Source of the DNA: Puniceicoccales bacterium
GTDB lineage: Bacteria; Verrucomicrobiota; Verrucomicrobiia; Opitutales; JAIRKQ01
DNA length: 64,000 nucleotides
Assembly (NCBI GenBank): GCA_031266345.1
Contig: JAISBD010000007.1
Coordinates: 4,377 to 68,376 of the forward strand
Reading direction: 5' to 3'
A model generated the notes under the pieces. It was not told the origin of the DNA. It worked only from the letters and a program-made list of their open reading frames with translations, and did not search any database. Positions within the stretch are counted from its first letter, which is position 1. Each line of letters starts with the position of its first letter. A program made the translations under genes and the position numbers. Of the stretch, positions 13,854-22,229 are shown piece by piece.

Positions 13854-16800
13854 ATGAAAAAGTATTTTAGTTTTTTTGGCGATTTGATCAGTGGTGTAAA
13901 AAAAACGTTTAACGGTTTAGTCGGCGGTGCGAAAAAAGTGTTTGGCAGCTTAAAAGGGGGAAATAGAATGGCGGCGAATATGGTGTTTAACGGCTTGAAA
14001 GTGGTGAATAGAGCGGCGGTGGCGGCGATTTGCTTTGCCGCTTTGGGTTTTGCCCCTGAGTTGCGGGCGGATCCGGGCGAAGATGGCTCTTCCATAGGTG
14101 TTCTGACCAGTGCTAAAACGTGGGATACGGACGACCACAATGGGTACATTTTTACCGGTGACGATTCCATAAGCGGCGAAGGTACCGCTGTGAATATTAC
14201 TGCCGGCGAAGCTTTCAAAATTTTTACCATAAATTTCCAAAATGATCCCAGCGTAAAGACGGATATCGCAGGCCCTGAGGTGAAGGATGAATACATTCAG
14301 GCACACATTTATGCGCACAACACGGATGGCGATAGCGATGCCGTTGGTCTAAGCCTTGGCGATGGGGTGAATTTGACGATCACCGCCGCGGAAAAAGAAG
14401 CTGATGCCTGCTATCGCCCCACCATAGCGGCTTACAAAAGTGGAAGCAGCAGCGGTGCTGCGGTGATAATTAGAGCTCCAGAGGCAAGTGTCGGCAATGA
14501 AATAAATGTTGCCGTTCCCGTGATATTTCATGCCACATTCGCCCCGACTGTCGCAGTATTATCGGAGCTTTCTGCCCCCTCTCCTTCTAACTCCGCGGCG
14601 GCAATATTCGGTGCGGCAAGCGGAAATGACACTGCCACGGTGGGCGGGATAAACAATTGGACCCTGGAGGATGGCAATACCCTGAATGCCACATTAACCT
14701 CAGATACCGCAGCACCAACATTAGTATCGACAGATTCTTATTACTCTTACTATTCTTGTTCTAACTCCGCGGCGGCAATATTCGGTGCGGCGAGCGGAAA
14801 TGGCACTGCCACGGTGGACGGGGAAAACAGCTTGGCCTTGGGGAATGGCAATACCCTAAATGCCACAGTAATCTTAGATACCACAGTACTAGCATCAGCA
14901 TCGATAAATTCTTATGCTAACCTTCATCCCTATTTCGCGGCGGCAATATTCGGTGCGGCGAGCGGAAATGGCACTGCCACAGTGGACGGGGAAAACAGCT
15001 GGAGATTGGGGGATAATAATATCCTGAACGCCACAGTAATCTCAGATGCCAGAGCACTAGCAGTATCTAATTCTTACTACTCTTACTATTCTAGTCCTTA
15101 TTTCGCGGCGGCAGTATTCGGTGCGGCGAGCGGATATGGCACTGCCACAGTGAACGGGACGAATACTTGGGCCCTGGGGAATGGCAATAATCTGAATGCC
15201 ACAGTAGCAGACTTTTCTTATTCTAGCCTTTATTTCGCGGCGGTAATATTCGGTGCGGCGAACGGAAATGGCACTGCCACGGTGGACGGAACAAATACTT
15301 GGACCCTGGGAAGCGACAATAATCTGAGCACGCCATCACCTTTTTCTTCTCCCGATTCCTATCCTAACTCCGCGGTGGCAATATTCGGTGCGGCGAGCGA
15401 AAATGGCAATGCCACAGTGAACGGGGAAAACAGCTGGACATTGGGAGGCGATAATACCCTGAATGCCACAGCAGCAACGAATTCTAACTCCGTGGCGGTA
15501 ATATTCGGTGCGGCGAGTGGAGGCTACAGCAGCGCTGCTGCGGTAGAGGGGACGAATAATTGGACCCTGGGAAATGGTAATAATCTAAGCGCGCCATCAC
15601 CTTCTTCTTCTCCCTATTCTTCTTCCGCGGCGGCAATATTCGGTGCGGCAAGCAGAAATGGCACTGCCCTGGTGAACGGGACAAACAGTTGGATATTGGG
15701 GGATAATAATATCCTGTGTGTTACGGCATCTTCTTCTTCCGCGACGGCAATATTCGGTGCGGCGAGCGGAGGCTACAGCAGCACTGCCACAGTGAACGGG
15801 GCAAACAGTTGGACATTGGGGGGTAGTAATATCCTGAATGCTACAGCAGTAAATTCTTCTCCCGATTCTTCTTCCGCGGCGGTAATATTCGGTGCGGCAA
15901 GCAGAGATGGCACTGCCGCAGTGGAAGGGGAAAACAGCTGGACATTGGGAGACGATAATACTCTGAATGCCACAGTAGCAGCAAATTCTAACTCCGCGGC
16001 GGTAATATTCGGTGCGGCCAGTGGAAGCTACAGCAACACTGCCCTAGCGAGGAGCGTAGCGATAAATACAAACGGCAGTCAAACATTGAGTGCCCTGGCA
16101 TATGCTTCAAGCGCCGTCGATGCCAGGGTGAACGCCTTCGGTGCGGCTAATACGGATGTGCGCGCTTATACCGCGGCAGAGGCAGAGGCAGCAGCAGCGG
16201 GCTATGGTGCCGCTGAAGGCGATAGTGCCGCTGAGGGCGATAGTGCCGCTGAGAGCTATGGTGCCGCTGAGGGCGATCCCGTCCCCGGTGCCTTTGGCTG
16301 GCGGGTGGGAATATTTGCTACAGGGGAGGATATTCTGGAAGGCGGAGAATCTGAGCAAAAAGCCATCGCCGCCGCCGTGGAGACAGATTCCACCGTAAAC
16401 ATCCTCGCCGCGAAGCTGGGAAAGGCGGTGGACTTGACCACTGACCCGAGTAAAGCCATCGTTACCCTGGGAGCCAGCCAGGGTATCAGTTCCGGTGACT
16501 ATGCCCACGCATTTGCCCTGGGCAACGATTTCAAGATCTACATCGGCGGCAGGGTGGACCCAAACAAGGATAAAACTTCCGCCGAAGATGACTACGGTTT
16601 CGTGTCCGTGGCCCCGAAAGAGGGGACAACAAACACGGTCAACATTTTCGGCGCTATCAGTAGAGGTACGCACTCTAGCGGCACAAATGGTTTCAATCTA
16701 GCCATTGACAATGGCTGGGTGGTTAATGTTTACGGCCCCATGGAAGATTTTGCTTCCATCGATGTCAAAAACGGCACATTTAATTTTTACGGTCGCCTAG

Positions 16801-22229: not shown

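Follow-up and report, generated by a model that had tools for sequence, protein, structure and literature searches.

Does a single gene of an uncultured Puniceicoccales bacterium encode an autotransporter in which the whole passenger occurs twice, and if so, how did the second copy arise and what could it do? The gene in question lies at 13854..22229 on the plus strand of a 64,000-nucleotide (nt) stretch of contig JAISBD010000007.1 (assembly GCA_031266345.1, positions 4,377 to 68,376), which is referred to here as the window. A sequence-only reading had described it as one gene for 2791 amino acids (aa) with two super-modules, each made of a head, a repeat array, a linker and a tail, followed by a unique region and a beta-barrel. 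We found one uninterrupted open reading frame (ORF) of 2791 codons that stays open for 8376 nt and has its only stop at the end. The analysis described below makes it highly probable that the product is a type Va autotransporter from a lineage-restricted passenger family, with the passenger module present twice in tandem and probably serving as an adhesive or coating fibre.

Two modules and one translocator

When the N-terminal 1160 aa were compared with the rest of the protein by BLASTP, aa 110-1092 aligned collinearly with aa 1274-2267 in a single high-scoring segment pair (38.9% identity over 1091 columns, E = 8e-143). A self-comparison of the DNA, which had been proposed as a check, gave off-diagonal blastn matches that were displaced by 3372-3612 nt and, in the head and tail, 72-77% identical. 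Each of the motifs listed in the sequence-only reading was present exactly twice and where it had been placed, with nucleotide positions agreeing within 3 nt: FQNDP at aa 128 and 1291 (nt 14235 and 17724), AHIYA at aa 150 and 1313, NTNGSQTL at aa 738 and 1855, FGWRVGIFA at aa 814 and 1938 (nt 16293 and 19665), AFALGNDF at aa 886 and 2090, and IDxGWxVN at aa 951 and 2155. The collinear alignment and the single-module state of ten relatives (see below) bear out the proposed tandem duplication, which covers nearly the whole passenger, and the presence of two modules is confirmed far beyond chance.

Scans of the undivided protein against Pfam and NCBIfam returned no matches, and the barrel surfaced only after the protein had been split; NCBIfam gave no match with the pieces either. 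Scanned alone, the C-terminal 342 aa matched PF03797, the autotransporter hidden Markov model (HMM) suggested earlier for this purpose, at aa 2509-2766 (70.4 bits versus a cutoff of 26, E = 2.6e-19). An AlphaFold2 model of aa 1847-2791, built from a 30-sequence alignment with a mean predicted local distance difference test score (pLDDT) of 78, displayed an alpha-helical linker at 21267..21338 (aa 2472-2495) followed by 12 long strands with a pLDDT of ~90. The 12-stranded autotransporter beta-barrel, supported by PF03797, the modelled strands and Foldseek, occupies 21366..22226 (aa 2505-2791) and ends in GAGYNF. When the PDB was searched with Foldseek, the top 17 matches were all type Va translocators (EstA, AIDA-I, NalP, EspP, AaaA, BrkA and Hbp; E = 4e-13 to 8e-7, template modelling [TM] score of up to 0.78). 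Passenger and translocator are contained within a single polypeptide. On the combined evidence of the PF03797 match, the helix with 12 strands and the PDB translocators, the protein is a classical (type Va) autotransporter, as had been assumed.

All parts of the two modules lie on the plus strand. The head of module 1 (14181..14591, aa 110-246; FQNDP...AHIYA...ACYRPTIAAYK) shares 57% aa identity with that of module 2 (17673..18053, aa 1274-1400), which was recognized by BLASTP, motifs and HMM; the head HMM scored 176 and 183 bits in the two. The repeat array that follows in module 1 (14592..16040, aa 247-729) comprises 10 full units of 38-58 aa and 1 degenerate terminal unit, and that of module 2 (18054..19391, aa 1401-1846) comprises 9 full units with poly-Ser spacers and 1 degenerate terminal unit. 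The unit consists of a conserved core, SAAAIFGAASGNGTATVxGxNxWTLGxxNxLNAT, and a variable Ser/Tyr-rich spacer. Counted by FGAAS-type motif, the arrays hold 11 and 10 units, as reported before; the final one of each is degenerate and merges into the NTNGSQTL linker, which leaves 10 and 9 full units. The youngest unit pair was found at nt 18044-18344, with a period of 129 nt and 93% matches.

The linker and tail form the most conserved part of the family. They span 16041..16883 (aa 730-1010) in module 1, where the motifs NTNGSQTL, NAFGAANTD, FGWRVGIFA, AFALGNDF, NTVNIFGAI and IDNGWVVN.YGP were found and the tail HMM scored 372 bits, and 19392..20498 (aa 1847-2215) in module 2, with a score of 365 bits. 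The acidic linkers noticed earlier are inserts that occupy the same loop in both modules, between NAFGAxNTD and FGWRVGIFA: the one of module 1 (16188..16277, aa 779-808) was modelled as disordered, and that of module 2 reads EEEEEENPDNTDE. The loop of module 1 contains a tandem repeat (18 nt, 4.4 copies at nt 16199-16277, 85% matches) that encodes (GDSAAE)n and is a possible site of length variation. Module 2 also carries an insertion of 88 aa (19851..20114, aa 2000-2087) at a point where module 1 and all modules of the closest full-length relative, P0001, have ~8 aa. It was modelled at low confidence (pLDDT of 50-60) as four helices, and no homologue or family match to it was obtained in any search.

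Behind the tail, the extension of module 1 (16884..17153, aa 1011-1100), which includes the helix CAASGFDAAIADVQSK and KMVYIDPATGRTYRG...NYPWKG, closes the part that recurs in module 2. By hhalign, aa 1035-1100 matched aa 2219-2295 (probability of 98.8%, E = 4.9e-17), and the homologous extension of module 2 occupies 20499..20738 (aa 2216-2295). The duplicated block therefore reaches further than had been stated: the first ~80 aa of the region described as unique to the end of module 2 belong to the repeat. The remainder of that region, the pre-barrel region (20739..21266, aa 2296-2471), is kept in its first part by single-module relatives, and aa 2370-2433 were modelled as disordered. Module 1 is trailed by an unmatched spacer of its own (17154..17672, aa 1101-1273; 173 aa). 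No counterpart of this inter-module spacer was detected after module 2 or in P0001; it shares 46% identity with a metagenome fragment (P0058/L015).

At the N terminus, hydropathy, the N termini of relatives and the upstream sequence point to M39 as the probable true start, with a Sec signal peptide (13968..14069, plus strand). The ATG of M39 lies 38 codons into the longest ORF (13854-13967 precedes it) and has GGGGGA 8 nt upstream. The segment that it opens shows a basic n-region, the hydrophobic AAVAAICFAALGF and a cleavage-like site, ELRA/DP, after A72. The hydrophobic stretch (aa 54-66) comes after basic residues, and the LRA/D site, judged by hydropathy and by eye, resembles the NLRA/G of P0001; family relatives begin with ordinary signal peptides. 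M39 has a better-placed G-rich ribosome-binding sequence than M1 and gives a conventional signal peptide; a start there would shorten the protein from 2791 to 2753 aa. The first 38 residues could either extend the N terminus or remain untranslated.

Relatives and history of the modules

A full-length homologue search was swamped by low-complexity words and gave 1 match. Instead, we used a profile of the tail module from which the arrays had been removed. This profile found 12 loci among 185,579 species genomes, all in Opitutales or Puniceicoccales metagenome-assembled genomes (MAGs), and 98 proteins at E <= 1e-3 among 1.84 billion representatives, 25 of them at E <= 1e-30. One of the 98 (P0083) turned out to be an amphioxus collagen and was discarded as a false positive, which leaves ~97 relatives. 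Those carrying a name belong to Opitutales or Puniceicoccales. The passenger family is small, rare, uncharacterised and restricted to one lineage (Opitutia, Verrucomicrobiota). Its passenger module comprises a head, an array of FGAAS units of ~40-58 aa, a conserved tail and an extension. The window protein displays all of its hallmarks: the FxNDP...AHIYA head, FGAA units, NxNGSxTL, FGWRVGIF, AFALGxDF, IDxGWxVN.YGP and the PF03797 barrel. Ten other genomic relatives, 1087-1595 aa long, have one module each, arranged as head, units, tail, ~250 aa and barrel. A single module is thus the usual and probably the ancestral state, and the window protein would be derived.

P0001 (2624 aa, from the Opitutales MAG GCA_964486285.1) and the single-module homologues (L003-L013, P0013, P0016, P0020 and others) share the head, FGAA units, linker, tail, pre-barrel region and barrel (316 bits) with the window protein, whereas their module number is three or one instead of two; all of them are annotated "hypothetical protein." The three modules of P0001 hold only 2-4 units each, in contrast to the 10-11 per array of the window protein, and neither the acidic loop inserts nor the 88-aa helical insert is present in them. 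The window spacer was matched only by P0058/L015, a metagenome contig with the order tail, extension, spacer, head, units, tail, extension, spacer, an order that requires three modules or more. At its junction it aligns collinearly with tail 1, spacer and head 2 of the window (41% identity over 405 aa), and its two inter-module spacers are ~90% alike, which points to a recent module duplication. This 2.8-kb contig has one in-frame stop at ~nt 1227-1232, right after a head; the sequence may be a pseudogene, contain an error or be genuinely split. Scans of metagenome contigs with the spacer and then with the tail gave no matches, nor did a spacer profile run against a 5.8-billion protein set. 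Seven further relatives (P0032, P0034, P0035, P0038, P0060, P0091 and P0015), of which the named ones are Puniceicoccales, contain internal duplicates at offsets of 530-1016 aa, and several relatives have two modules. The earlier remark that a whole-passenger duplication is unusual holds in comparison with characterised type Va proteins but not within the family, given the three modules of P0001, the three or more of L015 and the seven proteins with internal duplicates. Module multiplication is thus recurrent in this family and not peculiar to the window gene.

In a neighbour-joining tree of tails, the two window modules paired with 94% bootstrap support and the three modules of P0001 grouped with 96%, with single-module proteins between them. 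Since the tails cluster by protein and the spacer is unmatched in P0001, the duplications in the two proteins were either independent or had a common history that was erased by concerted evolution. A duplication shared by the window protein and P0001 was considered and rejected: a BLAST match across the inter-module region proved to be the conserved extension, the spacer alone was unmatched, and the tails cluster by protein.

Dating of the duplication by synonymous divergence, as had been suggested, was carried out segment by segment. The number of synonymous substitutions per site (dS) was 0.47 for the head, 0.46 for the first tail segment (the FGWRVGIFA segment, aa 812-875 and 1936-2000) and 1.2 for the second (AFALGNDF to IDVKNGT, aa 884-1010 and 2088-2215), and it was saturated in the extension. 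The ratio of nonsynonymous to synonymous substitutions was ~0.3-0.65 in head and tail. Judged from these substitution values, the duplication is old, its divergence is uneven and both copies are constrained by purifying selection. The head core retains 84% DNA identity, with 38 of the 44 codons at identical residues being identical themselves; the second tail segment has 65% DNA identity at a protein identity similar to that of the head core. Such mosaic similarity suggests that an older duplication was followed by partial gene conversion. Within the two arrays the repeat units are marginally more similar (69% and 66% aa identity) than they are between arrays (62%). A plausible course would start with an old intragenic tandem duplication or a fusion of adjacent paralogues; the copies would later have been partly homogenised by gene conversion, and the arrays of short units would have grown and shrunk independently.

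Passenger fold, secretion and competing explanations

An AlphaFold2 model of module 1 (aa 75-1274, 24-sequence alignment) was all-beta, with a predicted TM score of 0.83 and a mean pLDDT of 79. Each FGAAS unit contributes four strands to the model, of ~12, 3-5, 6 and 10-11 residues, and the Ser/Tyr-rich spacers and the acidic insert appear as low-confidence loops. The Foldseek list for this model was weak and consisted mostly of beta-helix proteins, including Ag43, UpaB, Hbp, EspP and VacA. None of the passenger-type models of Pfam and NCBIfam (AIDA repeats, Pertactin and PATR) matched the protein, its pieces or 24 family sequences, and when PDB sequences were searched with the tail profile or with the head and array combined, all matches were attributable to chance. 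The passenger most probably serves in adhesion or coats the surface. We infer that the protein acts as an adhesin or as a means of lengthening a fibre, and the second module may double the adhesive surface, as had been supposed.

Following the type Va paradigm, the protein would be exported by Sec, the beta-barrel assembly machinery would insert the 12-strand barrel with the helix aa 2472-2495 in its pore, and the passenger would be threaded out C terminus first. With this polarity, module 2 would emerge and fold first, then the spacer and finally module 1. The putative beta-solenoid could be nucleated during folding by the conserved tail that each module carries. We would expect an all-beta surface fibre that is elongated and roughly doubled, with the Ser/Tyr-rich loops of the two 10-11-unit sets projecting from its core; differences in the number of modules (1, 2, 3 or more among relatives) would adjust length or reach and valency. 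More generally, and quite tentatively, type Va passengers might be buildable from serial self-contained modules, each with its own C-terminal nucleus, whose copy number changes through unequal recombination while gene conversion keeps the copies similar. If so, such modules would serve to tune the length and valency of a surface fibre in gut-symbiotic Verrucomicrobiota, comparable to the case of Hia and Hsf (see below) and undescribed for classical autotransporters.

A rival reading is that the duplication is an assembly artefact of a chimeric or mis-joined contig, or that the ORF represents two genes or a pseudogene, and such an origin is barely conceivable here. The source is a short-read metagenome assembly, an independent Logan assembly (SRR14710922) breaks at the gene start, and look-ups of the exact protein from either start codon found no record elsewhere. 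However, DNA identity between the modules is only 65-84%, their dS values are at least 0.46, and the longest exact match is 29 nt between modules and 50 nt anywhere in the gene. With exact repeats this short, short-read assembly is unambiguous at the module level. Moreover, the frame is open for 8376 nt with both copies under purifying selection, the tail-spacer-head junction recurs with 41% identity in an unrelated metagenome contig, and a three-module protein exists in another MAG. From the sequence data, an assembly artefact is excluded. A real double module could also have arisen if two adjacent paralogous autotransporter genes fused after the upstream one had lost its barrel and the downstream one its signal peptide; the protein would function in the same way today. 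Tandem clusters of paralogous autotransporters do exist in the lineage (L003 has four in a row), and nothing in the pre-barrel region of the protein corresponds to the spacer aa 1101-1273, as expected of a remodelled junction. Yet this spacer contains no remnant of a barrel or signal peptide, and the window modules are each other's closest relatives (94% bootstrap), which fits intragenic duplication or conversion. Fusion and intragenic duplication predict nearly identical end products, and we regard a fusion as unlikely.

The role assigned to the passenger has competitors as well. Rather than as an adhesin, it might act as a coat or spacer on the surface, promote aggregation (self-association) or carry a cryptic enzymatic or toxin activity. 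The self-associating Ag43 stands in the weak structural list and nothing points to any ligand; the Ser-rich loops are possible glycosylation sites, as in AIDA-I-type proteins. Against a non-adhesive function, Pfam, NCBIfam and PDB sequence searches revealed no catalytic domain or motif, and beta-solenoid repeat passengers that lack enzyme domains are typically adhesins or aggregation factors. We regard a passenger of this kind as doubtful. Far less probable still is descent from the chlamydial Pmp family as a divergent member inherited within the Planctomycetes-Verrucomicrobia-Chlamydiae (PVC) superphylum. Verrucomicrobiota and Chlamydiota both belong to this superphylum, in which orthologues of many outer-membrane proteins of chlamydiae occur (PMC2811131). 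The window protein and the Pmps are also alike in being autotransporters rich in short repeats that contain Gly and Ala. Multiple GGA(I,L,V) and FxxN motifs are the mark of Pmps (PMC8326573), but GGA[ILV] is absent from the 2791 aa and FxxN occurs only twice. Neither PF02415 (Chlam_PMP) nor the Pmp middle domain matched the protein pieces at E <= 10 or the 24 family sequences at E <= 1. The resemblance of the repeat units to those of Pmps, which had been proposed from the sequence, was thus not borne out. Since its motifs are not those that define Pmps, the protein should not be filed as one, and the PVC ancestry shared with chlamydiae is a lead only.

We retain the adhesive or coating fibre of two tandem modules as the preferred explanation. 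Several points weigh against it. The unit at aa 497-542, the spacers and most of aa 1175-1274 were modelled at low confidence. Searches of Pfam, NCBIfam and PDB sequences for an adhesin, enzyme or ligand-binding domain recognised none. The start codon (M1 or M39) is ambiguous, with the putative signal peptide assigned by eye and hydropathy. Finally, the genome is a short-read MAG, and the exact unit numbers rest on one assembly; as the Logan assembly breaks and the protein has no other record, they lack independent confirmation.

Known systems and genomic setting

With the type Va proteins that have beta-helical passengers (AIDA-I, Ag43, TibA, pertactin, EspP and Hbp), the window protein shares a putative N-terminal signal sequence, a long repetitive passenger (modelled here as all-beta), the helix and the 12-stranded PF03797 barrel, all in one polypeptide, and its barrel model superposes on those of NalP, BrkA, EspP, AIDA-I and EstA with TM scores of up to 0.78. 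In contrast to described passengers, its own has no detectable sequence relationship to any of them, is built of two diverged composite modules of ~1000 aa instead of one continuous helix, and uses units of 38-58 aa with variable Ser/Tyr-rich spacers. To Pmps it is linked by its origin in the PVC superphylum, by dense short repeats and by the tandem paralogue clusters of relatives (L003), but it has neither the GGA(I,L,V)/FxxN multiplicity nor matches to the Pfam Pmp models. The L003 cluster (6155-13859, Puniceicoccales MAG Cc175_bin120) consists of four tandem autotransporter ORFs, one of them split, around a single-module family member, an arrangement that recalls Pmp-like clusters.

The closest precedent for the multiplication of modules was found in the type Vc proteins Hia and Hsf of Haemophilus influenzae, which contain repeated multi-domain modules. 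Hsf is ~2 times as long as Hia, and its authors suggested that it stems from a duplication and that the extra length is needed to reach beyond the capsule (PMC2597055). The parallel lies in evolutionary logic and is one of analogy: unlike the window protein, Hia and Hsf are trimeric, have a short anchor and a Trp-ring, neck and coiled-coil fold, and bear no sequence relationship to it. A literature search for internal or tandem passenger duplication in type Va proteins found no equivalent description. As an elaboration of a familiar type of secretion, the two-module gene is genuine but rather ordinary; it relies on canonical machinery, and no new mechanism is opened. If our interpretation is correct, the type Va autotransporters would gain a passenger family that is restricted to one lineage and had not been described. 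It would also mean that whole composite modules of ~1000 aa, beyond short rungs, can be multiplied in tandem and kept under selection. This would bear on how very long passengers fold during C-to-N secretion, perhaps with one nucleus per module, and on how uncultured gut Verrucomicrobiota construct their surface.

The complete autotransporter ORF stands between a gene for a 471-aa hypothetical protein and a GrpB-family gene, and the genes around it have housekeeping functions (MlaE, an ABC ATPase, LpxI, GrpB, an EPSP-synthase-fold enzyme and a class I tRNA synthetase). A comparison with the loci of relatives revealed no conserved synteny, so the autotransporter gene stands alone. The 471-aa ORF (11950-13365, plus strand) is Cys rich, has no family match and is identical to MDR1255482.1 (hypothetical protein LBJ94_00950, Puniceicoccales bacterium). 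A Logan contig of SRR14710922 (L014/L016, 3615 nt) contains LpxI and this ORF exactly and ends at about the autotransporter start codon, where the repeats apparently break the assembly. Further upstream, a 582-aa ORF on the minus strand (9008-10756) showed no Pfam or NCBIfam match. Its N-terminal half is made of 5-6 tandem copies of an acidic unit containing GFFRKVWNGVCGWFSS, encoded by repeats at nt 9728-10455 for which Tandem Repeats Finder gave periods of 141 and 177 nt with 80-95% matches, and its C-terminal ~200 aa are non-repetitive.

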